From positions 310,001-374,000 of the forward strand of contig RSEE01000017.1 in the NCBI GenBank assembly GCA_003971905.1: a stretch of DNA of 64,000 nucleotides, written 5' to 3'. The stretch is from Moniliella sp. 'wahieum' (lineage: Eukaryota). Of this stretch, positions 19,887-45,568 are shown piece after piece. The notes beneath the pieces were generated by a model that saw only the letters and a list, made by a program, of their open reading frames with translations, searched no databases and had not been told where the DNA came from. Position 1 is the stretch's first letter, and each line of letters starts with the position of its first letter. The position numbers were made by a program, and so were the translations under genes.

Positions 19887-20148
19887 CGTTGGCAGTGATA
19901 GCGGAAGCGGGTGCGAACGAACAAAGCAGGTGGGGATGTGCACAGTTGGTGGAGACGAAGCAAATGAGAGAGACGGCCAGTCGTAGCGCGCATTACTTGC
20001 ACATGCTGAGGCACAGGTGTCTGGGGTATCATGCACGCATGCATCAGCGTCATGCTTCCTCCCCTCCTCCCGCGTTGTGACAGCTGTATCGGCATGGCTC
20101 AACTTCTGGGTAATGAAAGAGTCAGACTGGTAGTAAAAGGGTACAAAA

Positions 20149-20308
20149 TGTCGGCCTCGCTACTACCACAGAATGTGAGCACTGAACGTCGTATTGGACT
20201 AAGAAGCTTCTGCGACTGACTCGTCCAGAAGACTGGTGCGAGCTCGGAAGGAATGAAAGCTGACTCACGTGACTCAGGGTCCGCGCGGTCCTAGGACGGA
20301 TGTCAACA
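20149..20308 (-). repeat. Copia 3' LTR
   Basis: Identical to 25034-25193; preceded on the minus strand by a short purine tract AGCGGGG. Confidence 0.95.
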
Positions 20309-20324
20309 CCCCGCTGACCGGAGG

Positions 20325-23300: not shown

Positions 23301-23731
23301 GTTTGGTCGCCATGGCCCGCAGGGGTGTGGGTGGCGTTCGCGGGTTGTGTAAGATCGTGAATTGATAGTCACTGCCGGTTACTTTTCGTAGGGTGGATCC
23401 TGGGTTACCAAGCCAGATACCCTTCTGGTGTGGGGCGAAGTATGATGCGATTCCGGTGTTCGACAGGTGTGCTACACTGACGAGATTTCGGGCTGAAACG
23501 GGGCATGTATAGGCTGTTGGGGAGTTTTATCTCCATTTGGTGTCCTCCTAAGCATCGGATACGGATTGTGGCCGTGCCTCGTCCTTCCGCCTTTACATGT
23601 GTCCCGTTAGCAACCTCTATCTCGTCGTCGCAAGGGGTCATGGATGTGAAGACGGATTTGTCTTTCCAAATGGATGGGAATGCCCCACTGTCATATAATG
23701 CCCGGATGATTCGCATTTCGCCCCCGAGTTC
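20325..23731 (-). CDS. pol: Copia pol (PR-IN-RT-RNase H), broken by indels
   Basis: Domain motifs distributed over ORFs 23405-23716, 22264-23313, 21365-22609, 21240-21470, 20303-21130 and 20122-20607. Confidence 0.9.
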
Positions 23732-24979
23732 CTAGTAGTCAGCTGTGCCCGCATCAACGTCAATCACTTCAGACTCGGGAGAGCTCGCTCTCTGAGCGAC
23801 GTGAGCGTTGGCTCGGCCTGGGTTGCGCGGAGGGACAACAGGTTTATTAGACGTCGCGCTGCGCCAGGGTTGGTTGGTGCGGTCTTGCCCCTTGGTCTTT
23901 GTGTCCGCGAGGTTGTCGTCGCCGGCTTTGCCCCCGCTGGAGTTTTTTCCCCCGCTGGTGGGTCGTCCCCCGCTGTCGGGTCGAGTCCAAGGCGTTCCTC
24001 CGTTGACCGGCTTGCCTCCGTTTCTCTTCCTTTCTCCACCGGGATACGTGGCGGCTGGTATGTCCATCACGGCCTGCCGTAACTTGTCTAGACTCGAGCG
24101 CTCTTCACGCTGGCGAATGCTCATGTCGCGTAAGCCGAGTAGGATCCCAGTGCGTTCCTGCTCTTCCGTAAGTGGGATGCCCGCTCGCGTCAGGCTTGCA
24201 CTGATCTCTTCCATGTAGTCGAGGTAGTCTCGACCCGATCGGTTTCCTTGGTCGGCCGAAAAGTAGCGAATGAGTAGAGGCCCTCTGTTTGCGGTAGGCG
24301 TATATCCATACCGCTGACGCAGCATGTTCAGCGTGTCCTGGGTGCATGATATTTCGTGGTGGGTGCGGATCGTCCGGAAGAGGGTTGACGGCATGGCTTC
24401 CCTAAGAAGGTTGTGCAAGCGTCTGTCGAGGTCCTCGGTGAAGTAGCGGGAGCTGCGACCATTCTGGACGACGTCGCTTGCGTGGGGGTGGGCATCTGTT
24501 ATCGCGAAGAGAAATTCGTCTTCCCAAGCGCTGTAGGCGGACGGGTCTTTGTTCAGATCAGGCCACTTGATATTCTTGGTGGGAGACTCGCGTAGTGATC
24601 TGTAAAGGTCGTACTCGGGTCGCGAGGCTGCGCCTGTAGGTGCCCCCAAAGTTGCGTTGGGTTGAGTTTCCATTTGGTGGATGTTTTGCACCACAAAATT
24701 CGTAGCCCGTCGAACCCAGTTTGTCGTGATAGACGTAGGTTCGTCCTTCCATCCAAGCCACTCGGCTCTGTCGTGTATAGCTCTGTTGATCTTCTCTTTA
24801 ACGACATCGATGTCGTTCGTCTTCTTGAACCACAGGTGCGCTTCGGCGCAAAGCATCATGAGTTCCTCGTTGTCGGTGCCAATCGGTGGCGGATCGCGAC
24901 CGGTTGGTGTCCAGTAATCGCGCTTGTTCACCATTGTGGTGTCGCTGACCGAGAGATCGGTGTTAGCGTTGGCGCCCAT
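23732..24979 (-). CDS. gag: Copia gag (no CCHC knuckle seen)
   Basis: Open ORF from MGANANTDL, with YSAWEDEF-type motif; lies between the 5' LTR and the protease and ends in TAG. Confidence 0.85.
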   Translation of the reverse strand: MGANANTDLSVSDTTMVNKRDYWTPTGRDPPPIGTDNEELMMLCAEAHLWFKKTNDIDVVKEKINRAIHDRAEWLGWKDEPTSITTNWVRRATNFVVQNIHQMETQPNATLGAPTGAASRPEYDLYRSLRESPTKNIKWPDLNKDPSAYSAWEDEFLFAITDAHPHASDVVQNGRSSRYFTEDLDRRLHNLLREAMPSTLFRTIRTHHEISCTQDTLNMLRQRYGYTPTANRGPLLIRYFSADQGNRSGRDYLDYMEEISASLTRAGIPLTEEQERTGILLGLRDMSIRQREERSSLDKLRQAVMDIPAATYPGGERKRNGGKPVNGGTPWTRPDSGGRPTSGGKNSSGGKAGDDNLADTKTKGQDRTNQPWRSATSNKPVVPPRNPGRANAHVAQRASSPESEVIDVDAGTADY

Positions 24980-25033
24980 GGTTGTGGGTGTAGTTTTGGC
25001 CAGCTCAGGGATGAGCAGATAAGGATGTAACTC

Positions 25034-25193
25034 TGTCGGCCTCGCTACTACCACAGAATGTGAGCACTGAACGTCGTATTGGACTAAGAAGCTTCTGCGA
25101 CTGACTCGTCCAGAAGACTGGTGCGAGCTCGGAAGGAATGAAAGCTGACTCACGTGACTCAGGGTCCGCGCGGTCCTAGGACGGATGTCAACA
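25034..25193 (-). repeat. Copia 5' LTR
   Basis: Identical to 20149-20308. Confidence 0.95.
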
Positions 25194-25228
25194 CAAATGG
25201 CCCAATTGTGTTGAATAGCCCAAAAAAT

Positions 25229-25324
25229 TGCTTCAAAGGGAATCGAACCCCTGTCACATCGATGTCTGATGGACACTGACGCCATGCCTGGCAACGATGT
25301 AGTATACCACTAACCCATGGAAGC
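25229..25324 (-). tRNA. tRNA-Gly(GCC) with 26-nt intron (25263-25288)
   Basis: GCTTCCA acceptor 5' arm, TGGGTTAGTGGTA A-box, CATCG-TTGCCA^T-CGATG anticodon arm, GGTTCGATTCC B-box, TTTTTT terminator. One G is missing from the 3' acceptor strand (likely an assembly error). Confidence 0.85.
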
Positions 25325-25703
25325 TTGATAACACCTTGGACAGAAATCCATCAGGTATATATACTGGTACTTGTATGTTGGACCAAAAAACTTGGGAATA
25401 ACAATGTCGCTGTTCTATAGTCACATGGCTGATACCTTTCGTTGGTATCCAGTATCACCATCATCATTAGAATGCATTGTCAATATATATAGCCATCCAC
25501 TTCCACATATGATCTCTTGGCACGGAAGAAAAAGTTCTTTATAATTGCAAATGGGGGCTATCTCATCTTTTGCCCAGAACACCGAAGGAAAAAGAAATTT
25601 AGTCATGGGGTTTGTGGTAAACCAGAAAACGATGCCGCGAGTGGAAAACTGCGGGCAGGAACACCGGTAATTGCGAACGTGGAGAAATTTAGCCAAAAAG
25701 GTT

Positions 25704-25796
25704 CGACAATGACAGGACTCGAACCTGTGCAGGCAAAGCCTAATTGATGTTTCGAAGCGATTCGAATCAATCCCTTAACCGCTCGGGCACATTGCC
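25704..25796 (-). tRNA. tRNA-Ser(CGA) with 12-nt intron (25749-25760)
   Basis: GGCAATG/CATTGTC acceptor, ATTGA-TTCGAA^A-TCAAT anticodon arm, long variable arm AGGC-TTT-GCCT, GGTTCGAGTCC, discriminator G, TTTTT terminator. Confidence 0.9.
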
Positions 25797-25890: not shown

Positions 25891-26030
25891 TGCAAAAGAG
25901 GATATGGTCTACAAAGAGAAGGAGAAAGAGAGAGGTGATAGATCTATTCAAAAGAGAAACCCGTTATAGGGGCAGATCGGGCCGACGGTAGATCTATGGC
26001 ACCCCCACTCAGATTTGGTGGTTGCTTTGG
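25891..26030. mobile_element. LTR-end remnant, family B (diverged)
   Basis: GAGAGAGGTGATAGATCTATTC...CCCGTTATAGGGGCA matches the copies at 427 and 40878. Confidence 0.5.
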
Positions 26031-26789
26031 ACGGGAGCAAACAAATGGGTGACCGACAGGGCAACCCCCTCGCCCCGTTCTTTTTCCTCATTACGGCGTG
26101 GCAACTTTGGAGGAGTTGCAAGTCAACCTTGGGCCGGGGCGCCTCGAGTCGGCGCAACTGGACTACGTTACAATTTTCGGCCAAGGACGGGCATCTGCGC
26201 CTGGGAAGCCATGATTTTGACGAAAAAAAGACATGTCAGGTCTCCCGGTCACCTAACCAAGTGCCGCAAACGGTACAGGGACCAAATAACCCCAAGGTAC
26301 GGACTACCCCATGTCTCGACACTGTCTTGTCTCGTCTGGAGGACCTCGTTTTTTCGACTCTCGTAGGGGAATCTCCTTCGTATCCTTCCAGAGTCCAGTC
26401 CCACGCCACCTCTCGTCTGCCATCCTTATCGTACACATGAAAGCGCAGTGCGGCATCAGCACCACAGCCGTTATTGTCCTGACAGAGTCATCTGCCCTGC
26501 CCATATCGCTCCCTTTTGACCGCAAAAGTGCGAAATGGCGATGAGGATGTTTTAGCACGCAATGAATACCCTCATCGACACAACTAAGCATCAACAGTAT
26601 GCTCACAGGAGTCAGACATGTACAGCCTGACCTGCGGACACCCACCATCCGCTTCCAAACGGAGGTAGAGCACGCGGATAGTGTAGGAGAAATCCAAGCG
26701 GTAAGCATCTCAGTTGAGACTCATCACTGATTTCGGACAACCCTCCCAGGCAACGTGCTCGTCGTCTTGGGCGCACAGTATCCCCGTTT

Positions 26790-27190
26790 CGAAGAACCTT
26801 TTGGAAGTCTGAGTTGGACAAGTGGGCATGTGGCCTGGTGGTCTTGTGGACGTTTGGGCCTTGTGGTACCGCGAACGGGGGCTGGGTCCCTCGCCAGCAA
26901 CTGCCTGGGGCTTTCATCCGCCGTTGCCCCTGACCCAGGAGAATCGGCGAGGCAGATGGAGGCGGTCATGCAGGGACCGCCAAAAAGCGTCGCATGGCTT
27001 CCCATCCGCACCGGTCGCACATTCCATCCCCAAGTTGTTCTGCGTGGTGGCGATGGTGGTGGGCAATGGCGCGAGTGCATGACGGCATAAGCGAGCCAGT
27101 CTCCAGCCGCTCTTTTGTCGGCGTACCGACGACCGCGCTGCGGGCCCGCATTGCACATTTCAACCGCGTTCCCATGGGGATGCGGCCCAT
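26790..27190. repeat. Left copy of direct repeat flanking the tandem array
   Basis: Diverged homologue of 40365-40795 (shared ATCCGCCGTTGCCCCTGACCCAGGAGAATCGGCG and CTTCCCATCCGCACCGGTCGCACATTCCATCCCCAAGT). Confidence 0.85.
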
Positions 27191-30100
27191 GTCACATGTC
27201 ACATCCCCTGTCACAGCCCCTGCATGTCACAGCCCCTGCATGTCACAGCCCATGTCACAGCCCATGTCACAGCCCATTCACATGTGATCGCACGTGTCAC
27301 GTCGCACTCCTAGTAGTGGGTGCGTCCCCCTCGCATCAAGAGGTCCAGTCGAGGATGATATTCAATGCCTCCTCTCCCACAGCTTCATCCCCACGGGCAT
27401 TCCTAGATCCCTTCTCTCCAGCGTTACTATCCACTTCATCTACCCAGACGCCCGTTTTCCATACCTTGGCCTCACATCCTGCTATGCAATACTATATGTC
27501 AACACATTGTAGTTTTAAACCAATCTCATTCTTCAACGATCAACACAACAACGAAACGAAGACGAAAACAAAACGAAAACAAAGTCATTGGTCCAGGTCC
27601 CATGCGTCCACCATTTCCACCTCAGGGCAATACACCTCCTCCACCATGTCCCATGCATCCTGCATCTCCACCTCTGGGCAATGCACCTCCACCACCACCG
27701 GCCCATGGCGACGCTTGCGCACGGTCACGCGAGGCTCGGCCGTGTTGACATCGAACCTGGCCCGAGGCACCGCTGGCGCCAGCACCCGCTCCTCAGCCGC
27801 CTTTGGCTTCTTGCGCAGGATCGAAGGCTGGCTGGGCGTTGCGATCGTGCCCAACTTGGAAGTTCGGATGCTCGGATGGGAATGATGGGCGCCAGCCAGT
27901 AGCGGGGGGGGGTGTAGTTAGATGGCAGACCCGGGCTCGTGGTAGAGGAGAGAGGCGGAAGGTGAACTGGAACTCGGTCAGAGGCGGGAGGGGCAGCATT
28001 TCGGTACTGGGTGAGCGGTTCGAGAAGGTAGGTGGTGGGAGGGAGACAAGAAGTTTTGCACCCATCCGAGGTTACTTATGCCCCCGCCCCCGCCGCCGTT
28101 GGGGCAATATGAGGCATTTTGCCCCAACGGCGGGGAGCACACTGCCCTCAGGCCTCAGGCCGCGCCTCGGCTTCAGCACACTGTGCTACCTCGACTGCTC
28201 CCATGCGGCGTGACGTGTACCTCGGAGCAGGCCGGGCAGCACACTGCCTCAAGCCTCAGGCCGCTGCCTCGGCTTCAGCACACTGTGCTACCTCGACTGC
28301 TGCCGTGCGGTGTGACATGTATCTCGGAGCAGGCCGGGTAGCACGCTGCCCTCAGGCCTCAGGCCCAACCCTCAGGCCTTAACCCAGCCCAGCGGTGGAT
28401 AATGCCGGACGCAGATCGGAATTCCCACGGTGGCCAAACCGGCCCAGACCGACGGACCGTGCGCGTCGCGGCTCCACTTGGGGAGGTAGGTTGTCTCCTC
28501 CGTTCTGCTTGGCCTTTGTTGATGAACGCCAGAGGTCCAACCAAAGGGTAGGCCGTTCGTGAAGGACATGGGTACCTGGCTGAAATGGAAGGGTTAGATC
28601 AGTGGACAAGGAGAGGAGAAGAGATGGAACATACACCTTGACCGCAACATAAGAAGCGTGGGTTGGCCTTTGAAGAGCGCCCATGTTCTGGGACGAGCAT
28701 GTATGCGCCCAGTACCGACACAATGTCCATTGCCCCACCGTCAACGAGACTGAATGGGCCGACTCATCCACTGGTTACCGGCTCTTCTGGTGGTCGCCAG
28801 CACTGACGCGGCTCGCAATGGCTTGCCCCATCCTTCCGCCAATCATCCGTGTGCCCGCTGTACTTCGATGAGCGCCAATGCCGCCAATGCCACGGTGGCC
28901 AAACCGGCCCAGACCGACGGATCATGCGCCGTCGCGGCTCCACTCTTGGTAGGTACGCTTTCTCCTCCATTTGCTTGGCCTTTGTTGATGAGCGCCAGAG
29001 GTCCAACCAAAGCGTAGGCCGTGCCGTGAAGGACATGGGTACCTGGCCGAAATGGAAGGGTTAGATCAGTGGAGAGGAGGAGAGGGAGATGGAACATACT
29101 TGACCGCAACATAAAGAGAATCGTCGGTTGGCCTTTGAAGAGCGCCCATGTGGCGTCCCGACGGCCACATGCTGGCGATGAGGGATGGAGATGGAATCCA
29201 AGAGCTAAGGAGAGCCAGAGCTATGGGCCTGGATGGGCTCCTGGGGTGGAGGCCAGTGGAAGCTCGTGGAAGGTCCGCAGCTCACTGCCCCGGTGCCCTG
29301 TGTGCATCGGGCCACGTCTCAGCCGAGCTCTTTTGTCGGCGTACCGACGACCGCGGCGGGCTCGCATTGCACATTTCAACTCCGCGTTCCCCATGGGGAT
29401 GCGGCCCATGTCACATGTCACATCCCCTGTCACAGCCCTGCATGTCACAGCCATGTCACAGCCCATGTCACAGCCCATTCACATGTGATCGCACGTGTCA
29501 CGTCGCACTCCTAGTAGTGGGTGCGTCCCCCCTCGCATCAAGAGGTCCAGTCGAGGATGATATTCAATGCCTCCTCTCCACACAGCTTCATCCCCACGGG
29601 CATTCCTAGATCCCTTCTCTCCAGCGTTACTATCCACTTCATCTACCCAGACGCCCGTTTTCCAACCCTTGGCCTCACATCCTGCTATGCATACTATATG
29701 TCAACCACATTGTAGTTTTAAACCAATCTCATTCTTCAACGATCAACACAACAACGAAACGAAGACGAAAACAAAACGAAAACAAAGTCATTGGTCCAGG
29801 TCCCATGCGTCCACCATTTCCACCTCAGGGCAATACACCTCCTCCACCATGTCCCATGCATCCTGCATCTCCACCTCTGGGCAATGCACCTCCACCACCA
29901 CCGGCCCATGGCGACGCTTGCGCACGGTCACGCGAGGCTCGGCCGTGTTGACATCGAACCGGCCCGAGGCACCGCTGGCGCCAGCACCGCTCCTCAGCCG
30001 CCTTTGGCTTCTTGCGCAGGATCGAAGGGCCTGGCTGGGCGTTGCGATCGTGCCCAACTTGGAAGTTCGGATGCTCGGATGGGAATGATGGGCGCCAGCC

Positions 30101-32000
30101 AGTAGCGGGGGGGGGTTGTAGTTAGATGGCAGACCCGGGCTCGTGGTCAGAGGAGAGAGGCGGAAGGTGAACTGGAACTCGGTCAGAGGCGGGAGGGGCG
30201 ATTTCGGTACTGGGTGAGCGGTTCGAGAAGGTAGGTGGTGGGAGGGAGACAAGAAGTTTTGCACCCATCCGAGGTTACTTATGCCCCGCCCCCGCCGCCG
30301 TTGGGGCAATATGAGGCATTTTTGCCCCAACGGCGGGAGCACACTGCCCTCAGGCCTCAGGCCGCGCCTCGGCTTCAGCACACTGTGCTACCTCGACTGC
30401 TCCCATGCGGCGTGACGTGTACCTCGGAGCAGGCCGGGCAGCACATGCCCTCAAGCCTCAGGCCGCTGCCTCGGCTTCAGCACACTGTGCTACCTCGACT
30501 GCTGCCGTGCGGGTTTGTGACATGTATCTCGGAGCAGGCCGGGTAGCACGCTGCCCTCAGGCCTCAGGCCCAACCCTCAGGCCTTAACCCAGCCAGCGGT
30601 GGATAATGCCGGACGCAGATCGGAATTCCCACGGTGGCCAAACCGGCCCAGACCGACGGACCGTGCGCCGTCGCGGCTCCACTTGGGGAGGTAGGTTGTT
30701 CCTCCGTTCTGCTTGGCCTTTGTTGATGAACGCCAGAGGTCCAACCAAAGGGTAGGCCGTTCCGTGAAGGACATGGGTACCTGGCTGAATGGAAGGGTTA
30801 GATCAGTGGACAGGAGGAGAGGAGAAGAGAGATGGAACATACCTTGACCGCAACATAAGAAGCGTGGGGTTGGCCTTGAAGAGCCCCATGTTCTGGGACG
30901 AGAATGTATGCGCCCAGTACCGACACAATGTCCATTGCCCACCGCAACCGAGACTGAATGGGCCGACTCATCCACTGGTTCCGGTCTCTTCTGGTGGTCG
31001 CCAGCACTGACGCGGCTCGCAATGGCTTGCCCCACTTCCGCCAATCATCCGTGTGCCCGCTGGTACTTCGATGAGCGCCAATGCCGCCAATGCCACGGTG
31101 GCCAAACCGGCCCAGACCGACGGATCATGCGCCGTCGCGGCTCCACTCTTGGGTAGGTACGCTTCTCCTCCATTCTGCTTGGCCTTTGTTGATGAGCGCC
31201 AGAGGTCCAACCAAAGCGTAGGCCGTGCCGTGAAGGACATGGGTACCTGGCCGAAATGGAAGGGTTAGATCAGTGGAGAGGAGGAGAGGAGAGATGGAAC
31301 ATACCTTGACCGCAACATAAAGAGAATCGTCGGTTGGCCTTTGAAGAGCGCCCATGTGGCGTCCCGACGGCCACATGCTGGCGATGAGGGATGGAGATGG
31401 AATCCAAGAGCTAAGGAGAGCCAGAGCTATGGGCCTGGATGGGCTCCTGGGGTGGAGGCCAGTGGAAGCTCGTGGAAGGTCCGCAGCTCACTGCCCCGGT
31501 GCCCTGTGTGCATCGGGCCACGTCTCCAGCCGAGCTCTTTTGTCGGCGTACCGACGACCGCGCTGCGGGCTCGCATTGCACATTTCAACTCCGCGTTCCC
31601 CATGGGGATGCGGCCCATGTCACATGTCACATCCCCTGTCACAGCCCCTGCATGTCACAGCCCATGTCACAGCCCATGTCACAGCCCATTCACATGTGAT
31701 CGCACGTGTCACGTCGCACTCCTAGTAGTGGGTGCGTCCCCCCTCGCATCAAGAGGTCCAGTCGAGGATGATATTCAATGCCTCCTCTCCACACAGCTTC
31801 ATCCCCACGGGCATTCCTAGATCCCTTCTCTCCAGCGTTACTATCCACTTCATCTACCCAGACGCCCGTTTTCCATACCCTTGGCCTCACATCCTGCTAT
31901 GCAATACTATATGTCAACCACATTGTAGTTTTAAACCAATCTCATTCTTCAACGATCAACACAACAACGAAACGAAGACGAAAACAAAACGAAAACAAAG

Positions 32001-32483
32001 TCATTGGTCCAGGTCCCATGCGTCCACCATTTCCACCTCAGGGCAATACACCTCCTCCACCATGTCCCATGCATCCTGCATCTCCACCTCTGGGCAATGC
32101 ACCTCCACCACCACCGGCCCATGGCGACGCTTGCGCACGGTCACGCGAGGCTCGGCCGTGTTGACATCGAACCTGGCCCGAGGCACCGCTGGCGCCAGCA
32201 CCCGCTCCTCAGCCGCCTTTGGCTTCTTGCGCAGGATCGAAGGGCCTGGCTGGGCGTTGCGATCGTGCCCAACTTGGAAGTTCGGATGCTCGGATGGGAA
32301 TGATGGGCGCCAGCCAGTAGCGGGGGGGGTGTAGTTAGATGGCAGACCCGGGCTCGTGGTCAGAGGAGAGAGGCGGAAGGTGAACTGGAACTCGGTCAGA
32401 GGCGGGAGGGGCAGCATTTCGGTACTGGGTGAGCGGTTCGAGAAGGTAGGTGGTGGGAGGGAGACAAGAAGTTTTGCACCCAT
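32001..32483 (-). CDS. Orphan 160-aa protein encoded once per array unit (intact copy, unit 3)
   Basis: ATG...TGA ORF followed by a T-rich tract; an internal 17-aa duplication shows synonymous third-position changes. Confidence 0.55.
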   Translation of the reverse strand: MGAKLLVSLPPPTFSNRSPSTEMLPLPPLTEFQFTFRLSPLTTSPGLPSNYTPPATGWRPSFPSEHPNFQVGHDRNAQPGPSILRKKPKAAEERVLAPAVPRARFDVNTAEPRVTVRKRRHGPVVVEVHCPEVEMQDAWDMVEEVYCPEVEMVDAWDLDQ

Positions 32484-34222
32484 CCGAGGTTACTTATGCC
32501 CCCGCCCCCGCCGCCGTTGGGGCAATATGAGGCATTTTTGCCCCAACGGCGGGGAGCACACTGCCCTCAGGCCTCAGGCCGCGCCTCGGCTTCAGCACAC
32601 TGTGCTACCTCGACTGCTCCCATGCGGCGTGACGTGTACCTCGGAGCAGGCCGGGCAGCACACTGCCCTCAAGCCTCAGGCCGCTGCCTCGGCTTCAGCA
32701 CACTGTGCTACCTCGACTGCTGCCGTGCGGTGTGACATGTATCTCGGAGCAGGCCGGGTAGCACGCTGCCCTCAGGCCTCAGGCCCAACCCTCAGGCCTT
32801 AACCCAGCCCAGCGGTGGATAATGCCGGACGCAGATCGGAATTCCCACGGTGGCCAAACCGGCCCAGACCGACGGACCGTGCGCCGTCGCGGCTCCACTT
32901 GGGGAGGTAGGTTGTCTCCTCCGTTCTGCTTGGCCTTTGTTGATGAACGCCAGAGGTCCAACCAAAGGGTAGGCCGTTCCGTGAAGGACATGGGTACCTG
33001 GCTGAAATGGAAGGGTTAGATCAGTGGACAGGAGGAGAGGAGAAGGAGATGGAACATACCTTGACCGCAACATAAGAAGCGTGGGTTGGCCTTTGAAGAG
33101 CGCCCATGTTCTGGGACGAGCATGTATGCGCCCCAGTACCGACACAATGTCCATTGCCCCACCGTCAACCGAGACTGAATGGGCCGACTCATCCACTGGT
33201 TCCGGTCTCTTCTGGTGGTCGCCAGCACTGACGCGGCTCGCAATGGCTTGCCCCACTTCCGCCAATCATCCGTGTGCCCGCTGGTACTTCGATGAGCGCC
33301 AATGCCGCCAATGCCACGGTGGCCAAACCGGCCCAGACCGACGGATCATGCGCCGTCGCGGCTCCACTCTTGGGTAGGTACGCTTTCTCCTCCATTCTGC
33401 TTGGCCTTTGTTGATGAGCGCCAGAGGTCCAACCAAAGCGTAGGCCGTGCCGTGAAGGACATGGGTACCTGGCCGAAATGGAAGGGTTAGATCAGTGGAG
33501 AGGAGGAGAGGAGAGATGGAACATACCTTGACCGCAACATAAAGAGAATCGTCGGTTGGCCTTTGAAGAGCGCCCATGTGGCGTCCCGACGGCCACATGC
33601 TGGCGATGAGGGATGGAGATGGAATCCAAGAGCTAAGGAGAGCCAGAGCTATGGGCCTGGATGGGCTCCTGGGGTGGAGGCCAGTGGAAGCTCGTGGAAG
33701 GTCCGCAGCTCACTGCCCCGGTGCCCTGTGTGCATCGGGCCACGTCTCCAGCCGAGCTCTTTTGTCGGCGTACCGACGACCGCGCTGCGGGCTCGCATTG
33801 CACATTTCAACTCCGCGTTCCCCATGGGGATGCGGCCCATGTCACATGTCACATCCCCTGTCACAGCCCCTGCATGTCACAGCCCATGTCACAGCCCATG
33901 TCACAGCCCATTCACATGTGATCGCACGTGTCACGTCGCACTCCTAGTAGTGGGTGCGTCCCCCCTCGCATCAAGAGGTCCAGTCGAGGATGATATTCAA
34001 TGCCTCCTCTCCACACAGCTTCATCCCCACGGGCATTCCTAGATCCCTTCTCTCCAGCGTTACTATCCACTTCATCTACCCAGACGCCCGTTTTCCATAC
34101 CCTTGGCCTCACATCCTGCTATGCAATACTATATGTCAACCACATTGTAGTTTTAAACCAATCTCATTCTTCAACGATCAACACAACAACGAAACGAAGA
34201 CGAAAACAAAACGAAAACAAAG

Positions 34223-34705
34223 TCATTGGTCCAGGTCCCATGCGTCCACCATTTCCACCTCAGGGCAATACACCTCCTCCACCATGTCCCATGCATCCTG
34301 CATCTCCACCTCTGGGCAATGCACCTCCACCACCACCGGCCCATGGCGACGCTTGCGCACGGTCACGCGAGGCTCGGCCGTGTTGACATCGAACCTGGCC
34401 CGAGGCACCGCTGGCGCCAGCACCCGCTCCTCAGCCGCCTTTGGCTTCTTGCGCAGGATCGAAGGGCCTGGCTGGGCGTTGCGATCGTGCCCAACTTGGA
34501 AGTTCGGATGCTCGGATGGGAATGATGGGCGCCAGCCAGTAGCGGGGGGGGTGTAGTTAGATGGCAGACCCGGGCTCGTGGTCAGAGGAGAGAGGCGGAA
34601 GGTGAACTGGAACTCGGTCAGAGGCGGGAGGGGCAGCATTTCGGTACTGGGTGAGCGGTTCGAGAAGGTAGGTGGTGGGAGGGAGACAAGAAGTTTTGCA
34701 CCCAT
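34223..34705 (-). CDS. Orphan 160-aa protein (intact copy, unit 4)
   Basis: Identical translation to 32001-32483; frameshifted copies end at 27585, 29788, 36443 and 38654. Confidence 0.55.
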   Translation of the reverse strand: MGAKLLVSLPPPTFSNRSPSTEMLPLPPLTEFQFTFRLSPLTTSPGLPSNYTPPATGWRPSFPSEHPNFQVGHDRNAQPGPSILRKKPKAAEERVLAPAVPRARFDVNTAEPRVTVRKRRHGPVVVEVHCPEVEMQDAWDMVEEVYCPEVEMVDAWDLDQ

Positions 34706-37700
34706 CCGAGGTTACTTATGCCCCCGCCCCCGCCGCCGTTGGGGCAATATGAGGCATTTTTGCCCCAACGGCGGGGAGCACACTGCCCTCAGGCCTCAGG
34801 CCGCGCCTCGGCTTCAGCACACTGTGCTACCTCGACTGCTCCCATGCGGCGTGACGTGTACCTCGGAGCAGGCCGGGCAGCACACTGCCCTCAAGCCTCA
34901 GGCCGCTGCCTCGGCTTCAGCACACTGTGCTACCTCGACTGCTGCCGTGCGGTGTGACATGTATCTCGGAGCAGGCCGGGTAGCACGCTGCCCTCAGGCC
35001 TCAGGCCCAACCCTCAGGCCTTAACCCAGCCCAGCGGTGGATAATGCCGGACGCAGATCGGAATTCCCACGGTGGCCAAACCGGCCCAGACCGACGGACC
35101 GTGCGCCGTCGCGGCTCCACTTGGGGAGGTAGGTTGTCTCCTCCGTTCTGCTTGGCCTTTGTTGATGAACGCCAGAGGTCCAACCAAAGGGTAGGCCGTT
35201 CCGTGAAGGACATGGGTACCTGGCTGAAATGGAAGGGTTAGATCAGTGGACAGGAGGAGAGGAGAAGAGAGATGGAACATACCTTGACCGCAACATAAGA
35301 AGCGTGGGTTGGCCTTTGAAGAGCGCCCATGTTCTGGGACGAGCATGTATGCGCCCCAGTACCGACACAATGTCCATTGCCCCACCGTCAACCGAGACTG
35401 AATGGGCCGACTCATCCACTGGTTCCGGTCTCTTCTGGTGGTCGCCAGCACTGACGCGGCTCGCAATGGCTTGCCCCACTTCCGCCAATCATCCGTGTGC
35501 CCGCTGGTACTTCGATGAGCGCCAATGCCGCCAATGCCACGGTGGCCAAACCGGCCCAGACCGACGGATCATGCGCCGTCGCGGCTCCACTCTTGGGTAG
35601 GTACGCTTTCTCCTCCATTCTGCTTGGCCTTTGTTGATGAGCGCCAGAGGTCCAACCAAAGCGTAGGCCGTGCCGTGAAGGACAGGGTACCTGGCCGAAA
35701 TGGAAGGGTTAGATCAGTGGAGAGGAGGAGAGGAGAGATGGAACATACCTTGACCGCAACATAAAGAGAATCGTCGGTTGGCCTTTGAAGAGCGCCCATG
35801 TGGCGTCCCGACGGCCACATGCTGGCGATGAGGGATGGAGATGGAATCCAAGAGCTAAGGAGAGCCAGAGCTATGGGCCTGGATGGGCTCCTGGGGTGGA
35901 GGCCAGTGGAAGCTCGTGGAAGGTCCGCAGCTCACTGCCCCGGTGCCCTGTGTGCATCGGGCCACGTCTCCAGCCGAGCTTTTTGTCGGCGTACCGACGA
36001 CCGCGCTGCGGGCTCGCATTGCACATTTCAACTCCGCGTTCCCCATGGGGATGCGGCCCATGTCACATGTCACATCCCCTGTCACAGCCCCTGCATGTCA
36101 CAGCCCATGTCACAGCCCATGTCACAGCCCATTCACATGTGATCGCACGTGTCACGTCGCACTCCTAGTAGTGGGTGCGTCCCCCCTCGCATCAAGAGGT
36201 CCAGTCGAGGATGATATTCAATGCCTCCTCTCCACACAGCTTCATCCCCACGGGCATTCCTAGATCCCTTCTCTCCAGCGTTACTATCCACTTCATCTAC
36301 CCAGACGCCCGTTTTCCATACCCTTGGCCTCACATCCTGCTATGCAATACATATGTCAACCACATTGTAGTTTTAAACCAATCTCATTCTTCAACGATCA
36401 ACACAACAACGAAACGAAGACGAAAACAAAACGAAAACAAAGTCATTGGTCCAGGTCCCATGCGTCCACCATTTCCACCTCAGGGCAATACACCTCCTCC
36501 ACCATGTCCCATGCATCCTGCATCTCCACCTCTGGGCAATGCACCTCCACCACCACCGGCCCATGGCGACGCTTGCGCACGGTCACGCGAGGCTCGGCCG
36601 TGTTGACATCGAACCTGGCCCGAGGCACGCTGGCGCCAGCACCCGCTCCTCAGCCGCCTTTGGCTTCTTGCGCAGGATCGAAGGGCCTGGCTGGGCGTTG
36701 CGATCGTGCCCAACTTGGAAGTTCGGATGCTCGGATGGGAATGATGGGCGCCAGCCAGTAGCGGGGGGGGTGTGTAGTTAGATGGCAGACCCGGGCTCGT
36801 GGTCAGAGGAGAGAGGCGGAAGGTGAACTGGAACTCGGTCAGAGGCGGGAGGGGCAGCATTTCGGTACTGGGTGAGCGGTTCGAGAGGTAGGTGGTGGGA
36901 GGGAGACAAGAAGTTTTGCACCCATCCGAGGTTACTTATGCCCCCGCCCCCGCCGCCGTTGGGGCAATATGAGGCATTTTTGCCCAACGGCGGGGAGCAC
37001 ACTGCCCTCAGGCCTCAGGCCGCGCCTCGGCTTCAGCACACTGTGCTACCTCGACTGCTCCCATGCGGCGTGACGTGTACCTCGGAGCAGGCCGGGCAGC
37101 ACACTGCCCTCAAGCCTCAGGCCGCTGCCTCGGCTTCAGCACACTGTGCTACCTCGACTGCTGCCGTGCGGTGTGACATGTATCTCGGAGCAGGCCGGGT
37201 AGCACGCTGCCCTCAGGCCTCAGGCCCAACCTCAGGCCTTAACCCAGCCCAGCGGTGGATAATGCCGGACGCAGATCGGAATTCCCACGGTGGCCAAACC
37301 GGCCCAGACCGACGGACCGTGCGCCGTCGCGGCTCCACTTGGGGAGGTAGGTTGTCTCCTCCGTTCTGCTTGGCCTTTGTTGATGAACGCCAGAGGTCCA
37401 ACCAAAGGGTAGGCCGTTCGTGAAGGACATGGGTACCTGGCTGAAATGGAAGGGTTAGATCAGTGGACAGGAGGAGAGGAGAAGAGAGATGGAACATACC
37501 TTGACCGCAACATAGAAGCGTGGGTTGGCCTTTGAAGAGCGCCCATGTTCTGGGACGAGCATGTATGCGCCCCAGTACCGAACAATGTCCATTGCCCCAC
37601 CGTCAACCGAGACTGAATGGGCCGACTCATCCACTGGTTCCGGTCTCTTCTGGTGGTCGCCAGCACTGACGCGGCTCGCAATGGCTTGCCCCACTTCCGC

Positions 37701-40364
37701 CAATCATCCGTGTGCCCGCTGGTACTTCGATGAGCGCCAATGCCGCCAATGCCACGGTGGCCAAACCGGCCCAGACCGACGGATCATGCGCCGTCGCGGC
37801 TCCACTCTTGGGTAGGTACGCTTCTCCTCCATTCTGCTTGGCCTTTGTTGATGAGCGCCAGAGGTCCAACCAAAGCGTAGGCCGTGCCGTGAAGGACATG
37901 GGTACCTGGCCGAAATGGAAGGGTTAGATCAGTGGAGAGGAGAGGAGAGATGGAACATACCTTGACCGCAACATAAAGAGAATCGTCGGTTGGCCTTTGA
38001 AGAGCGCCCATGTGGCGTCCCGACGGCCACATGCTGGCGATGAGGGATGGAGATGGAATCCAAGAGCTAAGGAGAGCCAGAGCTATGGGCCTGGATGGGC
38101 TCCTGGGGTGGAGGCCAGGAAGCTCGTGGAAGGTCCGCAGCTCACTGCCCCGGTGCCCTGTGTGCATCGGGCCACGTCTCCAGCCGAGCTCTTTTGTCGG
38201 CGTACCGACGACCGCGCTGCGGGCTCGCATTGCACATTTCAACTCCGCGTTCCCCATGGGGATGCGGCCCATGTCACATGTCACATCCCCTGTCACAGCC
38301 CCTGCATGTCACAGCCCATGTCACAGCCCATGTCACAGCCCATTCACATGTGATCGCACGTGTCACGTCGCACTCCTAGTAGTGGGTGCGTCCCCCCTCG
38401 CATCAAGAGGTCCAGTCGAGGATGATATTCAATGCCTCCTCTCCACACAGCTTCATCCCCACGGGCATTCCTAGATCCCTTCTCTCCAGCGTTACTATCC
38501 ACTTCATCTACCCAGACGCCCGTTTTCCATACCCTTGGCCTCACATCCTGCTATGCAATACTATATGTCAACCACATTGTAGTTTTAAACCAATCTCATT
38601 CTTCAACGATCACACAACAACGAAACGAAGACGAAAACAAAACGAAAACAAAGTCATTGGTCCAGGTCCCATGCGTCCACCATTTCCACCTCAGGGCAAT
38701 ACACCTCCTCCACCATGTCCCATGCATCCTGCATCTCCACCTCTGGGCAATGCACCTCCACCACCACCGGCCCATGGCGACGCTTGCGCACGGTCACGCG
38801 AGGCTCGGCCGTGTTGACATCGAACCTGGCCCGAGGCACCGCTGGCGCCAGCACCCGCTCCTCAGCCGCCTTTGGCTTCTTGCGCAGATCGAAGGGCCTG
38901 GCTGGGCGTTGCGATCGTGCCCAACTTGGAAGTTCGGATGCTCGGATGGGAATGATGGGCGCCGCCAGACAGGCGGGGGGGTGTAGTTAGATGGCAGACC
39001 CGGGCTCGTGGTCAGAGGAGAGAGGCGGAAGGTGAACTGGAACTCGGTCAGAGGCGGGAGGGGCAGCATTTCGGTACTGGGTGAGCGGTTCGAGAAGGTA
39101 GTGGTGGGAGGGAGACAAGAAGTTTTGCACCCATCCGAGGTTACTTATGCCCCCGCCCCGCCGCCGTTGGGGCAATATGAGGCATTTTTGCCCCAACGGC
39201 GGGGAGCACACTGCCCTCAGGCCTCAGGCCGCGCCTCGGCTTCAGCACACTGTGCTACCTCGACTGCTCCCATGCGGCGTGACGTGTACCTCGGAGCAGG
39301 CCGGGCAGCACACTGCCCTCAAGCCTCAGGCCGCTGCCTCGGCTTCAGCACACTGTGCTACCTCGACTGCTGCCGTGCGGTGTGACATGTATCTCGGAGC
39401 AGGCCGGGTAGCACGCTGCCCTCAGGCCTCAGGCCAACCCTCAGGCCTTAACCCAGCCCAGCGGTGGATAATGCCGGACGCAGATCGGAATTCCCACGGT
39501 GGCCAAACCGGCCCAGACCGACGGACCGTGCGCCGTCGCGGCTCCACTTGGGGAGGTAGGTTGTCTCCTCCGTTCTGCTTGGCCTTTGTTGATGAACGCC
39601 AGAGGTCCAACCAAAGGGTAGGCCGTTCCGTGAAGGACATGGGTACCTGGCTGAAATGGAAGGGTTAGATCAGTGGACAGGAGGAGAGGAGAAGAGAGAT
39701 GGAACATACCTTGACCGCAACATAAGAAGCGTGGGTTGGCCTTGAAGAGCGCCCATGTTCTGGGACGAGCATGTATGCGCCCAGTACCGACACAATGTCC
39801 ATTGCCCCACCGTCAACCGAGACTGAATGGGCCGACTCATCCACTGGTTCCGGTCTCTGCTGGTGCTCGCCAGCATTGACGCTGCACGCAGTGGCACCTT
39901 GCCTCGTCCCCAACAGATCGTCCCGCACGAAGTGGTTCGTGCACCTCACCCCCTCTGCCATCCCTAAATGCGATCGACACTGGTGGGTCGGTCGGGTCCT
40001 GTCGTGCCGTTCGTCCCACACGGGTTCCCATCCCACGAAACGCCGGGGGCGGACCTCCCGCGGACATCCAACGCTGATGGCCGCAAGCCGGGCATTCTTT
40101 TTCAGGATCCGCTGGGGGACAATGCCTCCCCTTGATGATTGACAGCTTTTTTGCATGTGTGAGCTGCTCGCCACCATCCAAGTACCCTGATCCTCTCCCC
40201 GTTTTCTCGGATGAGGACAAGCTCCATTCTCCTCCGTTTCCGCTGCGATCGATCTTCTTCCGGTCTGCGCTTACAGATCAAACACGTTTTCTCGATCAGA
40301 CACATAGCCTGATCTAGCACGTTACAATCGCCAACCAGAAAGGTTGTGGCCTACTGTGCAGTTC

Positions 40365-40795
40365 GACGTACCTTTTGGAAGCCTGGGTTGGGCATGTGGA
40401 CATGTGTCCCAGTAGTCCTTTTGGACTTGGGCCTTGTGGTACACATGAACGGTGGCTTGGTCTCTCGGGGCACTGGATGGGGCTTTCCATCCGCCGTTGC
40501 CCCTGACCCAGGAGAATCGGCGCGGGCAGATGGCGGCGGCCATGCAGAGTCCTGCGAAGAGCGTCCCGAGGCTTCCCATCCGCACCGGTCGCACATTCCA
40601 TCCCCAAGTCGTTTCGTGTGGTGGCGATGGTGGTGGGCAATGGCGCGAGTGTTGGGCATGACAGCAGAAGCGAGCCCAGTCTCCAGCGCGCTCTTTGTCG
40701 GCGTACCGACGACCGCAGCAACTTGTATTGCCGCTGCGGGGCTGCCATTGCACATTTCAAATCCATCCCCTCCGCTTTGGCCATGGGGATGTCCG
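40365..40795. repeat. Right copy of direct repeat flanking the tandem array
   Basis: Homologous to 26790-27190; its last ~100 bp are also present in every array unit. Confidence 0.85.
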
Positions 40796-40975: not shown

Positions 40976-41099
40976 GAGTCGGATAGAACAGCGCGATGCG
41001 TGATGCTGATCAGCTGCATGCATGGCGCTGACACTGAAGCCTCCGGAGCTTAGGGACGGGTAGAGGCAGGGAGGCCAAACACTGCCGAATTGCCTCAGG

Positions 41100-43400
41100 C
41101 GTATTTCTCCAACGCGTCGATGCAGGTAGAGCTGTGGATGACCTAATCAAGTGGGCGACCCGAGCCGAGTTGTATTTGGCGTCGCAACTGACATCCTCCC
41201 GGGCCGCAACCATTCCCGTACCTCGCCATGGCCAACTCTCAGCTTCCAGCCCCCCACGCGCAACAGCATCAACAACAACGATCGTAATGGCTACGAGCCG
41301 ATGGACCTAGATGGAGTGGAAGTCCGTCCCGTGGGCCGCAGGTTCCGGCTCAGTGTTGAAGGTTGAAGAGTACGCCGTCACACCCGTGAGGGTGATCGCT
41401 GCATGCGTTGCGGGCACGCGGGTCATTGGCGTAACGAGTGCCCCTTGGGCCAGAATGGCCATTGCCCCGGGCAGTGTGGCCGTCTGTTTTGGCCCCAAGG
41501 GATGTCTAATCAGAGTCGCCGAGCCACGGGGCGGGGTCGGGTCAGGCGAACGAGAGGGCAGCTCGTCGAGCGCGCTGGAGCAGGCGCGCGATTAGGGGCA
41601 GGGGCCCCGCCGTGGATGTGTGCCACGCCTACCTACTCCTGCCGACGGTCGTCTAGCTACCGCGCCTATATGTTTCCAGACGAACTTGGGCACGCACACC
41701 ACGTTAATAAGCCTAGTGGACACGGGGGCCGAGAGGTCGTTTATTGACGGCGGAGAAGTGCGCAATTACGGGTACGTCCTGACTCCCCTCTCTGCCCCCC
41801 CGCAGGTGCGGCTACTGGATGGGCGAAGGATCTGGTCAGGTCAGGTTACTCACTCTTTCCTTTTGTTTTTAACCTGCGCGGTCAAACGTTCAGCCACGAC
41901 TTCCTCGTTATGTCCATTCCGCACTATGCAGCGGTCTTTCGTATCGACTTCCTGTGCGCCAATGAAGTGTCGCTTTCCTTTGCTCGAGATGGTCCAGCCG
42001 AGCTTAGCTTTAAGGTCACTGGCACCCGATCGAGTGTGTGGTATCATGGACACATACATCTAGTCTCGGCTCACCGTTTCAATCACGGGCTTTAGCAAAG
42101 ATGAGGACCTCGTCGGCGGGCAAGTGTGGGTCGACGATCAGGCCGAGGCGGTTTCCCGAGTCTGAAGCGCTACGGTACACCTTGCTCCATGATCACCGCG
42201 CAAGCCCGAGGCTGCGCACCATGGAAGACAGCGCACGTACGATCAGCTGGTGCGGTGGTACGATTGGCGCGGCATGGCCTTCATTGCGTGTCACTACGTG
42301 GAGACGTGCTCGTCGTCTCAAACTGCCAAGAGCCGCCGCCCTCGTCCCTATGGTCTATACTGCATCCGTTTGAAGTACTAGCCCTGCCTTGGTTCAGTTT
42401 CAGTATGGATCATTTCGGTCCCTTGGCAGAGGGAGGGCTTGGACGCAAGGGAGAGAGCCGGAACGTGGTGGTGGTGGTGAATTGTGGCTGTCCAAGACGG
42501 TGTGCTCATGCCGTGCAGCTCGAGCGTCACGGCAGGTAGCTTGTTCGAGCGGCTGGCGCACAAGGTGTTCCACGTGTGCGGGTGGGCTATCGAGTTTTTC
42601 GTGAGCGAGAGAGGGCCCTTTGTTGAGATGTCGAGGGTGATCGAGAGAGTTGGTGAAGGGGAAAGCTATACCACACAGGCACTTCTCACTGCGCGGGACC
42701 GGTGGGTCCCAAAGAAACATGGATTGGCTTTGCCTTATATAGGACCAAAGCGTGTAACAAAAGGGGTGTAGAGTACTATCTCTCTAGAAACGCAATAGAA
42801 AGGGGAACGGAAACAGTAAGTGGTGCTAGGTTTGGTCTGAGGTATACCCCGAAACCGGTTTCAAGTAAGTTTGAGGCAGTTTGTATCTTGGCTCAAACAA
42901 TCGCAAAGTTTGGAGCAAGTGCGCTTTATTCAACACCCTTGTTCACTTCCTCCCAGGTGCGTGGCTTTTGCGAAAAGCATTGCATCCGCCAAAACATGGC
43001 TCCTACCCAGTACCCCCCAGTCTGATTGGAAGTCGAAGCGGTTTGTCGACTTGGTTCAGACACATCTGTGCCATTTTGTTAACCATATCAGTCCGATTGG
43101 GTTGAGCACCTACCCTCTGCTGCCTTTGCGCTCAACACTGCTCGCTCCGCCTCAACAGGATTATCTCCGTTCTACATCATGGATTATGGGCTCCAGCCGC
43201 GCAAACCACGTGGCACAGACGCTGCCGCCCGGTCGGGTGGGCCAGAGGTGGAACATCAACTGGCTTGTGCCAAGCAACTGAGGCGGCCAGGGAGGCTTTG
43301 GAACAGGCGCGCAAGCGAGCCAAGCGCTATCGATCGGTTGCGGAGTGAGGGAGCCCCGGAGCCTTCAAACACGTTCCTACGGCCCGCGCGGGTGCGTACG
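41100..43400 (+). mobile_element. Decayed, internally deleted Ty3/Gypsy remnant(s)
   Basis: EPMDLD and CMRCGHAGHWRNEC zinc knuckle (~41400); protease LVDTGAERSFID; integrase pieces PWFSFSMDHFGPL, YIGP and FCEKHCIRQ; in-frame stops; no RT found. Confidence 0.8.
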
Positions 43401-43951
43401 CAGTCTTGCCACAGAAGTGCAGAAGCCTCCATTTTACGCCAAAAGGCATCTCCTCATCCCTAGCTCCGCTCGGATCCACCAACTAACCCAATCCCGAAAC
43501 TACCGTGAGATGTCCTTCCGTCTCCTACGGGATTATTGCACCCCACAAAAACCTGGGTGGCCCCCCTTGGACGAGCACACCCGTGATACTAGCCTTCCGT
43601 GGGAGGAGCCAGTTATATAGCGAAGGCCTATTAATGCTCTGGTGGAGAGCCGCTTGTTATTTCTCACGTATCTCTTAAACTCTCTTCCCTTTCACCCGCA
43701 AGCCTATCGCCTGTTCCGATGGCATACAGTCGGTCAGTATCTTAGTATGCTCGCGTGCTATCCTCAGGTGAGAGCTTTTCTTACTCCCAGTCCTTATATT
43801 TTTAGGGATGAGACGTGTCGTTGCGGAATACTTCCACTCCCAACTCCTCAGCAAGCGTGTCAACGATCAACGCGGGGCCGGATATGGGAGAAAACCCCTA
43901 GCACCCCCTCTCACAACAAAAGTGTTGTGCGTTTTTATATTTACTCGAATG

Positions 43952-44131
43952 TGTCATAGTTTGGCTGATCTCGCTCCCATTTCCAATTTCTTCGTCTCGA
44001 GCGTCTCGCTCCTTCCCTGTTCCTTCCACTTCGCACCATGTCCTCTGTTCTTGCTTCTTCCCCACGAACGATTGCTACACCCTTGGCCTAGTCCGATCCT
44101 GGTCTCCCTCGCCTTAGCCCCGACTGTGACA
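43952..44131 (+). repeat. Chromovirus 5' LTR (180 bp)
   Basis: Matches 49559-49750 except for two indels. Confidence 0.95.
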
Positions 44132-44172
44132 TTATCGTTCGTCTAACCGTCAACAGGCGAGCCCGACCAGAG

Positions 44173-45568
44173 ATGTCCTCGATCCACGACAACCCCCGTG
44201 ACCCCAGTAACCCTAGCGCGCCGCACCCCATCGCGCGGCGCGGCCCGATCCGACCCCCGTCCGACCCCCCCTCTGACGCTCCGTTCGACGACGATGGCCC
44301 GGAGTGGTTCCACCCGGCTGGGCCCTCTGAACCCCCCCCATGCAGCTCCGTCTGTTGCGCCCGCGCCCCCGGGGTATACATTGCCTGCCTCCGACTTGTC
44401 CGGCCTGGACCTCGAGGCCGCTCAGCGCCGGGTCGATGAGGCCCGCAGAATGCGCCAGCTTCTGTTGACGGAGGCCCGGGAACACCAGGCCTACCTTGCA
44501 GCCCAGGAGGACCAGCGCCGCGCTTTCGAGGATGAGCAAGAGGCGAAGCGCCGCGCTTTCGAGGATGAGCAAGAGGCGAAGCGCCGTGAGCACCGCCTCC
44601 GTCAGCGGCGGGAGGAGGCGGCGCTTGCCGCGGAAGAGGCCCGGTTGGCCGCCTCGGTACGGGAGGCTCAAACTGGCGTGGTGTCCTCGGCCCCCGCCCC
44701 CGCTCCCGCCCCTGGGCCTTATGGTGATCTGACTGCCATCCCGAACACGGTGTCGGAAGAGCCTAAGATGTTCGAGCCCGTTCGTTTCCGCCCGTCGTCT
44801 GGTGCGAATCCCAACTCTCGTGACCGGGTCCAGGCCCAGCACGTCGTCACCTCCTTCGAGATTTACGCGCGCGTCGCCCTCACGCATATGGGCGCGGCGG
44901 CATGGATCGACCACTTCATGGGCCTGCTGCAGGGAGAGGCCCTCACTTGGGTCGAGCAGTTCGGCTCGGAGGTGGCCCTTCCCCTGGAGGCGCGCACCAC
45001 ACCCGCCCTCCAGTCTTGGCCTGCGTTTCGCGCAGCTTTCCTGGAGCAGTGGGGCGAGCGCAACCCGGCGCTGAAGGCGTTTGAGGAGTTTCGTCGTCTT
45101 CGGCAGACAGGATCGCAGCGGACTATTCCGCTACGTTCACGGTTCTGCTACGTCGCTGGAACCCCAACGCGTCGGATGAGGACCGCTACTATTACTTTCT
45201 GTACGGCTTGAAGCCGCGGTGCGTGACGCAATCGCCTCCCGCGGCGAGTCGGCTCACTTTGGACGGATCAGTTTCGAACAACTGCGCACAGCGGCCATTG
45301 ACATCGACCAATCGCAATCGCTGGGCGCTCGTGGTACCGCAACCTCCCCGGGATCGGGCGGCAATCATTGGTTTCGGCCCTCGTCGCCGAAGCCGAGCCC
45401 ATGGACCTCAGCGCAGCCACCGCCACCGCCGAAGCGGCGGCACGGCGCACCGAGCGCCGCGCTCAAGGTGCGTGCTTCTACTGCGGTTCCCGTGACCACC
45501 TCATTGCCGAGTGCCCCACGTCCAGGTCTCCCCGCCGCCTCCTCGGCCCCGCCGCTGATTCTGTCTGA
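44173..45568 (+). CDS. gag: Chromovirus gag (frameshifted)
   Basis: Coiled-coil with duplicated RRAFEDEQEAK; LLQGEALTW...SWPAFRAAFLEQW...LRQTG; EPMDL and CCHC knuckle. Confidence 0.85.

Follow-up and report, generated by a model that had tools for sequence, protein, structure and literature searches.

Why does a fungal genome carry almost six consecutive copies of a ~2.2-kb unit, each built around a small open reading frame (ORF) that resembles no protein we could find? The array in question lies in a 64,000-nucleotide stretch of the Moniliella sp. 'wahieum' genome (GenBank assembly GCA_003971905.1, contig RSEE01000017.1, positions 310,001 to 374,000), which we call the window and which stands on contig C17 of an assembly of 69.5 Mb in 223 contigs. 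A first reading, made from the sequence alone, had proposed a recently amplified orphan gene or the cargo of an unrecognised mobile element. We find that the unit contains broken pieces of the N-terminus of a Helitron transposase (RepHel), with the ORF downstream of them in the same orientation. The explanation that we favour, with a probability of roughly 0.6, is that the unit is a Helitron cargo cassette, a non-autonomous derivative that was spread and amplified by recombination.

The array and its unit

The array occupies positions 27092-39895 and comprises 5.8 units of ~2.22 kb, starting at 27092, 29308, 31514, 33736, 35958, and 38168. Matching the window to itself gives 98.5% identity over 10.6 kb with a period of ~2.22 kb. 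The units are 2216, 2206, 2222, 2222, 2210, and 1742 bases long; compared with unit 3, the other five have 5, 1, 0, 0, and 8 substitutions and 27, 25, 2, 14, and 10 small gaps, so that the near-identity described in the sequence-only reading is borne out. The wider repeat family reaches past the array, from 26785 to ~40790. The assembly is rich in indels, and a single unit could in principle have been multiplied during assembly. Such an artefact is very improbable because both edges of the array are unique joints, every unit has indels of its own (2 to 27 against unit 3), and arrays of this family, with different periods, occur on the allelic contig and on two further contigs. The 2.2-kb array is real, with 5.8 its unit count as assembled, a count that may be off. 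A 166-base contig from DNA sequencing runs is identical to window positions 34354-34519. No Rfam family matches at its gathering score within the array, which leaves no ribosomal DNA, 5S, tRNA, or small nuclear RNA gene in the unit by this search and agrees with the earlier statement that there is no rRNA.

Unit 3, read along the minus strand, begins with a scrap of a segment that we call A, a 139-base piece of a Copia-type long terminal repeat (LTR; 33597-33735), and two copies of a 270- to 400-base repeat. Its second half consists of an internal repeat of 102-103 bases in 2.3 copies (32550-32785), a perfect hairpin with a 15-bp stem together with a TATA-like word just upstream of the ORF (32490-32551, minus strand, z = -4.2), the ORF itself (32001-32483, minus strand), a 3′ region (31695-32000, minus strand) with CTAG words on both strands at ~31717-31727 and weak hairpins (z ~-0.5), and finally a short palindrome followed by clustered 12-base repeats based on a 7-base palindrome (31592-31694), which is a candidate terminal or promoter region. 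Across the unit at 31514-33735 there are 17 seven-base palindromes centred on T-N-A, a count made without a chance control.

The LTR piece, present in five copies in the array and on the minus strand, replaces most of segment A and of a neighbouring segment, M. Its identification relies on seven genomic copies and on a 5,089-base contig that bears the piece at both ends; one LTR copy follows a frame read by eye as Copia RNase H, to which Pfam gave no match. Segment A, from the upstream portion of the decayed Helitron gene region, survives at the left edge of the element (26785-27140, minus strand), where it is joined to a retrotransposon remnant. Segments M and A form the right end (39896-40790, minus strand), where an older upstream portion of that gene is present in single copy. 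These right-end segments are 11-14% diverged from 20 of 21 other copies and 26% from the last.

A broken Helitron gene and the frame behind it

The link to Helitrons came from a genome-wide search with the Pfam family PF14214, which gave three matches, all partial, with the two above cut-off forming an allelic pair on contigs C39 and C15. Both lie inside a copy of the array's repeat family, on the strand of the ORF and abutting the 270-base repeat. The C15 frame matches the solved Helraiser transposase structure 7lcc (E 2.1e-14), its only solved-structure match, and 2,008 library proteins at E ≤ 0.001. The Rep gene of the C39/C15 pair stops just before the catalytic motifs and is joined there to the 270-base repeat, which by sequence likeness is itself a second RepHel N-terminus. 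Using a profile built solely from 48 public RepHel N-terminal regions, nine array peptides rank first among 1518 window peptides (best E 2.7e-5), and seven have E < 0.005, compared with a best E of 0.2 for the reversed control. Among 75 records the profile finds matches on 12 contigs (reversed control, best E 2.3). The window piece also matches the Rep N-terminus of C39 directly (E 2e-5), and the fragment and the fuller Rep gene have an intron position in common.

In all, the array holds 11 RepHel scraps, with two degraded pieces in each full unit. In unit 3 the first (32845-33245, minus strand) retains an exon with a Cys/CC motif, an intron at ~33000-33060, and a partly deleted next exon; the second (33241-33579, minus strand) is 5.8% diverged from the first and starts at a joint with ~7 bases of microhomology near 33240-33254. 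These RepHel pieces went unnoticed when 121 six-frame pieces from the unit and its relatives, and 43 of 242 clustered family ORFs, were scanned with Pfam; only the genome-wide family search and the purpose-built profile detected them. The sequence-only reading's statement that the array has no transposase therefore needs amending: an intact one was not found, yet degraded ones recur in every full unit. Its other suggestion, a mobile element's cargo, gains support, and the element can now be named as a decayed Helitron. Downstream of RepHel and in the same orientation, the ORF is found in the window and on C2, C65, C39, C15, C18, C30, C55, and C23. The array unit is very probably Helitron in origin, and is best called Helitron-derived and non-autonomous rather than an intact member of the group.

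An intact RepHel was not found in the PF14214 and PIF1-type searches, whose counts are lower bounds, and neither the unit nor the family copies hold a complete Rep and PIF1-type helicase in one gene. Among ten PIF1 matches, only a locus on C93 also bears a Rep-like piece, and this Rep and helicase locus is interrupted; C58 has an N-terminal piece and C69 a further Rep piece. When 714 longer candidates were searched by words with the Rep N-terminal piece of C39, nothing was returned; no solved structure matched this piece, and the old RepHel 5′ region gave no sign of codon periodicity. Several Pif1-like helicase loci elsewhere (L118-L126, on C22/C20, C56/C59, C142, C88, and C195) exceed the usual number and resemble host-type paralogs.

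Other element types were considered and dropped. An early guess from motifs at a CACTA or KDZ transposase was abandoned; the two loci matching the CACTA/EnSpm family PF02992 have no DNA or protein likeness to the window or to 40 family stretches. A tandem LTR of the TRIM/Cassandra type was rejected on the grounds that the sole LTR sequence is truncated on both sides and absent from the 2.5-, 2.8-, and 3.0-kb units of the sister arrays. We also considered tandem arrays of the CRE non-LTR type. Of 12 loci of the high-copy non-LTR family, only one, on C13, matches the unit's own segments, and that locus is the already known neighbour of a remnant; one more locus has a 44-base match to the LTR piece.

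Is the ORF a gene? Its DNA is present in all six units, as the sequence-only reading had it, but the ATG-to-stop frame is open in only two (32001-32483 and 34223-34705), encoding 160 amino acids, or 137 from Met24. The other four copies, at 27585-28067, 29788-30270, 36443-36925, and 38654-39134 (minus strand), are frameshifted in the assembly by three to four indels of 1-2 bases each, several in base runs, with zero or one substitution; we read these frameshifts as probable long-read sequencing errors. The protein sequence given earlier is as written, and its tail repeats do differ synonymously at CCA/CCT, GAG/GAA, and GAT/GAC and, by alignment, nonsynonymously at CAT/TAT and CAG/GTG. The coding frame proposed on that basis has firmer support from the 22 distinct substitutions found over codons 1-125 in 14 other copies, of which 12 are synonymous and 10 nonsynonymous against an expected synonymous share of 0.27. 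The ratio of nonsynonymous to synonymous rates (dN/dS) is 0.31 (p = 0.0055), falling to 0.22 (p 0.003) for codons 24-125, and is 0.64-3.4 (p ≥ 0.22) in the other five frames. Codons 126-160 were left out of the test, the tail being misaligned in 2 of 12 copies. The length of the tail varies by an in-frame 51 bases, with a third 17-residue repeat in the C2, C65, and C15 copies. Met1 is lost in 2 of the 14 other copies, and translation may start at Met24 rather than Met1. On this pattern of substitutions the ORF is under purifying selection, and it is quite likely a real gene, now or until lately.

A rather unlikely alternative treats the array as a satellite-like by-product: its ORF would then be open by chance, owing to the high GC content of the DNA, or would represent the final exons of a non-coding transcript that undergoes splicing. 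The DNA has a GC content of ~59%, the window contains 134 ORFs of at least 100 amino acids, and the first 33 codons resemble fungal intron sequence. Atlas recognition of the protein, at 1167, is below the level of known families, and a single-sequence fold is uninformative (mean predicted local distance difference test score 41). A chance frame does not, however, explain a synonymous excess specific to the ORF frame, changes of tail copy number that stay in frame, or a Met24 kept in 14 of 14 copies.

Residues 1-100 of the predicted protein are Pro-rich, residues 81-120 are basic, and residues 121-160, where the two 17-residue repeats lie, are acidic. From this composition we would guess at a disordered nuclear adaptor; the possible nuclear protein of the sequence-only reading would rest on two basic patches. 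One tail motif fits the Atg8-binding consensus once, which is only a lead. Homologs of the ORF were sought in Pfam, among 43 candidates of similar length, among 343 longer candidates (weak evidence), and among 310 pattern matches in metagenome contigs, and none was found; the best Atlas score, 0.82, is below lead level.

Proposed routes of spread among the family copies

The genome holds ~20 close copies of the ORF on nine contigs, as well as older family copies with the RepHel 5′ region at ~20 places. Besides the 2.22-kb array of the window, there are arrays with periods of 1.76 kb (C55), ~2.5 kb (C30), 2.84 kb (C65), and 3.0 kb (C2). The ORF, the 12-base cluster, and a portion of the RepHel repeat are common to all array types, whose joints lie within internal repeats or microhomology instead of at fixed ends. 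On C18, a single ORF stands between two direct RepHel-fragment repeats; the 1.76-kb period of C55 corresponds to a crossover between RepHel repeats in this arrangement, and the 2.2-kb period of the window to the joint with ~7 bases of microhomology.

The assembly contains two haplotypes, and contig C65 is 93-95% identical, including indels, to window positions 13589-20139 and 49756-62111. In four stretches the host flanks differ between haplotypes by 1.4-3.3% substitutions. The ORF region of the window is 3.9% from that of its own allele on C65, but 0.6% from the non-allelic copy on C55, 1.3% from C18, and 1.2-1.4% from C39; likewise, C39 and its allele on C15 are 4.2% apart in this region, and C39 and C18 0.8%. 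These distances cover 17 copies, with C23, C30, and one C65 copy, which straddle stretch borders, excluded by a length filter. The old RepHel 5′ region, by comparison, differs by 6-14% between most loci and by ~8-13% even between alleles (22 copies). Because non-allelic ORF copies are closer than alleles, the cassette moved or was homogenised among loci after the haplotypes split; together with the near-identity of the units, these distances support the recent amplification that had been proposed at the outset.

A fusion to the Copia LTR, a one-time event, marks five of the loci (window, C55, C18, C23, and C39), and in five of five the allelic stretch holds an older family remnant without the fusion. 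These five loci suggest that homology guided the entry or conversion and that unequal exchange or circle amplification came next. The process we propose would start from a layout like that on C18, where a crossover between the flanking RepHel fragments would release a 1.76-kb unit and a microhomology joint would yield the 2.2-kb unit. Such units could then re-enter or convert resident remnants at other loci, and would grow into arrays by unequal exchange or circle amplification. The ORF would be Helitron cargo with its own promoter, by analogy with the cap genes downstream of RepHel in the HELPO1 Helitrons of Pleurotus. Its small, mostly disordered product may have a nuclear, partner-binding role, as the basic patches and repeated acidic motif suggest, and, speculatively, would most likely protect or promote the element.

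A different route to the arrays would be rolling-circle replication by a RepHel acting in trans, which would leave concatemers in which the palindrome and 12-base-repeat region marks the joined ends. That candidate end region is kept in every array type, an A and then TC stand beside the palindrome on the gene strand in both flank classes, and Helitron-derived arrays of 2-7 monomers are described in Xenopus (PMC12001565) and a tandem triple in Metarhizium (PMC5148889). The enzyme for such a reaction, however, has been found only as the partial PF14214 matches and the one interrupted C93 locus described above, fixed ends are hard to reconcile with five periods and with starts and ends inside the unit, and an element inserting at any A/T site would not be expected to land in older remnants in five of five cases. 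We therefore regard rolling-circle amplification as unlikely, though less so than the other alternatives, and infer that the recent spread and amplification fairly probably occurred by recombination instead.

Helitrons have no terminal inverted repeats (TIRs) and leave no target site duplications (TSDs). No TIRs or TSDs, for which the sequence-only reading had recommended a search, were found: no bounding inverted repeat appeared among the five longest shown for each of ten regions, and the 11 allelic pairs compared offered no empty allele in which a duplication could be read. A strong hairpin at 32511-32551 has no CTRR after it. The candidate 5′ TC lies beside the palindrome at 31598-31610, as an A and then TC on the gene strand, in two flank classes only, and homology runs on beyond it. 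One apparent head-to-tail end proved to lie within the ORF of a non-LTR retrotransposon. Separately, L061:3440-3560 and L128:4091-4184 carry a GC-rich double hairpin (z -3.7) such as one would expect where a Helitron ends; on C58 the double hairpin stands directly after the RepHel N-terminal piece, and on C13 ~190 bases upstream of a family remnant.

The ORF could also be a host gene, such as a lineage-specific regulator, whose amplification was favoured by dosage selection and which merely sits in Helitron debris serving as a recombination substrate. Purifying selection would suit this explanation, as would the facts that all four loci with at least two tandem ORF copies are built on the ORF-bearing unit and that distant relatives of the ORF lie away from RepHel pieces, one of them adjoining a tRNA and host genes. 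An earlier case of a gene amplified within a Helitron-like unit is ToxB-HLE (10.1101/2025.11.13.688278). On the other side, the searches listed above found no ORF homolog outside this genome, all close copies lie in transposon nests, and the distant copies look broken. We judge a dosage-selected host gene improbable.

Several observations weigh against a recombining Helitron cargo cassette. Family copies end at scattered points, so that neither Helitron end is established, and the hairpins before the CTAG words at 31717-31727 are no more stable than those of shuffled sequences (z -0.5 for both strands). The unit has no helicase or catalytic Rep motif, and none of the 11 allelic pairs compared contains an empty site. 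Haplotype pairs were assigned by flank likeness only, the left joints of C18 and C9 differ, and gain in one haplotype is not fully separable from loss in the other combined with gene conversion. The selection test rests on 22 changes, a small sample. Finally, three distant ORF relatives (on C73 and the allelic pair C7/C55), with ~65-70% DNA identity, have a slight third-position excess and many frame-breaking gaps; no RepHel-profile match lies beside them, so the gene may predate its link to the Helitron.

Setting, known systems, and significance

The site of the array is a transposon nest. To its left lies a remnant of a non-LTR retrotransposon reverse transcriptase (25986-26567), from a high-copy family independent of the array, and to its right a Gypsy-type remnant (41034-43453, plus strand), common to several family loci, with traces of a protease and an integrase zinc finger in the allele. 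A young Copia element with identical 161-base LTRs (20149-25194), whose 5′ part has at least 39 further near-identical matches, and a Gypsy element (43952-49750) are both missing from the allelic contig C65; a shorter copy of the latter is inserted into the 3′ region of the ORF copy on C39. A high-copy non-LTR retrotransposon at L098:217-2352, with an open reverse transcriptase frame of 712 amino acids, has 141 matches from 135 of 1,373 scored candidates, and old fragments of it recur in these nests. Also recurrent is an orphan, intron-bearing, gene-like segment (L060:6283-8545, ~2.3 kb, ~11 long copies, 78-85% identity) that often stands beside a Helitron remnant on the opposite strand; Pfam and Atlas gave no lead for it, one piece having Atlas scores below lead level.

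The only two Rfam matches in the window are tRNAs (25229-25324 and 25704-25796). tRNA genes adjoin ~5 family loci, including those at 25229-25796 of the window and L068:6274-6368, and the window and the C73 locus, with its distant ORF relative, have a tRNA-Ser in corresponding positions. Insertion directed by tRNA genes was dropped as an explanation because these genes are close to only ~5 family loci. Proteins encoded in the window include fungal transcription-factor and translin domains (Pfam), and the host region at 58712-59136 contains a 176-base tandem repeat in 2.4 copies that are 92% alike.

The component features of this locus, namely cap genes in Helitrons, tandem Helitron derivatives, and fungal tandem gene units, are known in kind. 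Among the closest known systems is HELPO1 of Pleurotus ostreatus, in which orphan cap genes lie downstream of RepHel (PMC4289320). The main text on HELPO1 likewise describes a basidiomycete Helitron with orphan genes 3′ of an intron-bearing RepHel, nested LTR elements, and allelic length differences. HELPO1, however, has intact copies, defined TC and CTRR ends, and a full RepHel, whereas in the array described here RepHel is reduced to N-terminal scraps, the ends are not fixed, and the cargo forms arrays of five periods; the word 'tandem' is absent from the main text of PMC4289320. ToxB-HLE of Pyrenophora tritici-repentis (10.1101/2025.11.13.688278) resembles our array in forming fungal arrays of 3-5 units with a small gene and a retroelement scrap at the joint, in being read as Helitron-like without RepHel in the unit, and in the unequal crossing over invoked for it. 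In contrast to ToxB-HLE, where unit edges are conserved across independent amplifications and no RepHel sequence is present, the array here has RepHel homology, variable edges, several loci inside older remnants, and a cargo for which we found no likeness to any known protein. The arrays of Xenopus (PMC12001565) and of the FoHeli type in Fusarium and Metarhizium (PMC5148889) are similar in having monomers of up to ~2 kb in 2-7 copies and composites formed by self-insertion, but their monomers are whole elements or minisatellites, and the parts of these two reports that bear on them describe no selected cargo ORF in the monomer. A literature search, which covered mostly listings, returned no paper in which the cargo cassette of a Helitron spreads into that Helitron's remnants, nor the combination of a selected orphan cargo, a lost transposase, recurrence in the element's own remnants, and several periods.

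If the Helitron-derived cassette indeed spread by recombination, it would be a case of a fungal orphan gene family that was carried by a Helitron, outlived the transposase, and was multiplied by recombination among the debris, and whose versions at one locus differ between the two haplotypes of a single assembly. It would bear on the origin of fungal orphan genes and on differences in their copy number. A bolder interpretation, which we consider as doubtful as a chance ORF, is that the cassette is selfish in its own right: a small gene, rid of its Helitron machinery, that uses homologous recombination to enter decayed copies of its family, which would serve as landing pads where arrays expand, aided by a protein that helps it to escape silencing or to amplify. 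Were it true that the cassette drives its own spread, it would represent a kind of mobile gene that is invisible to annotation based on transposases or element ends.

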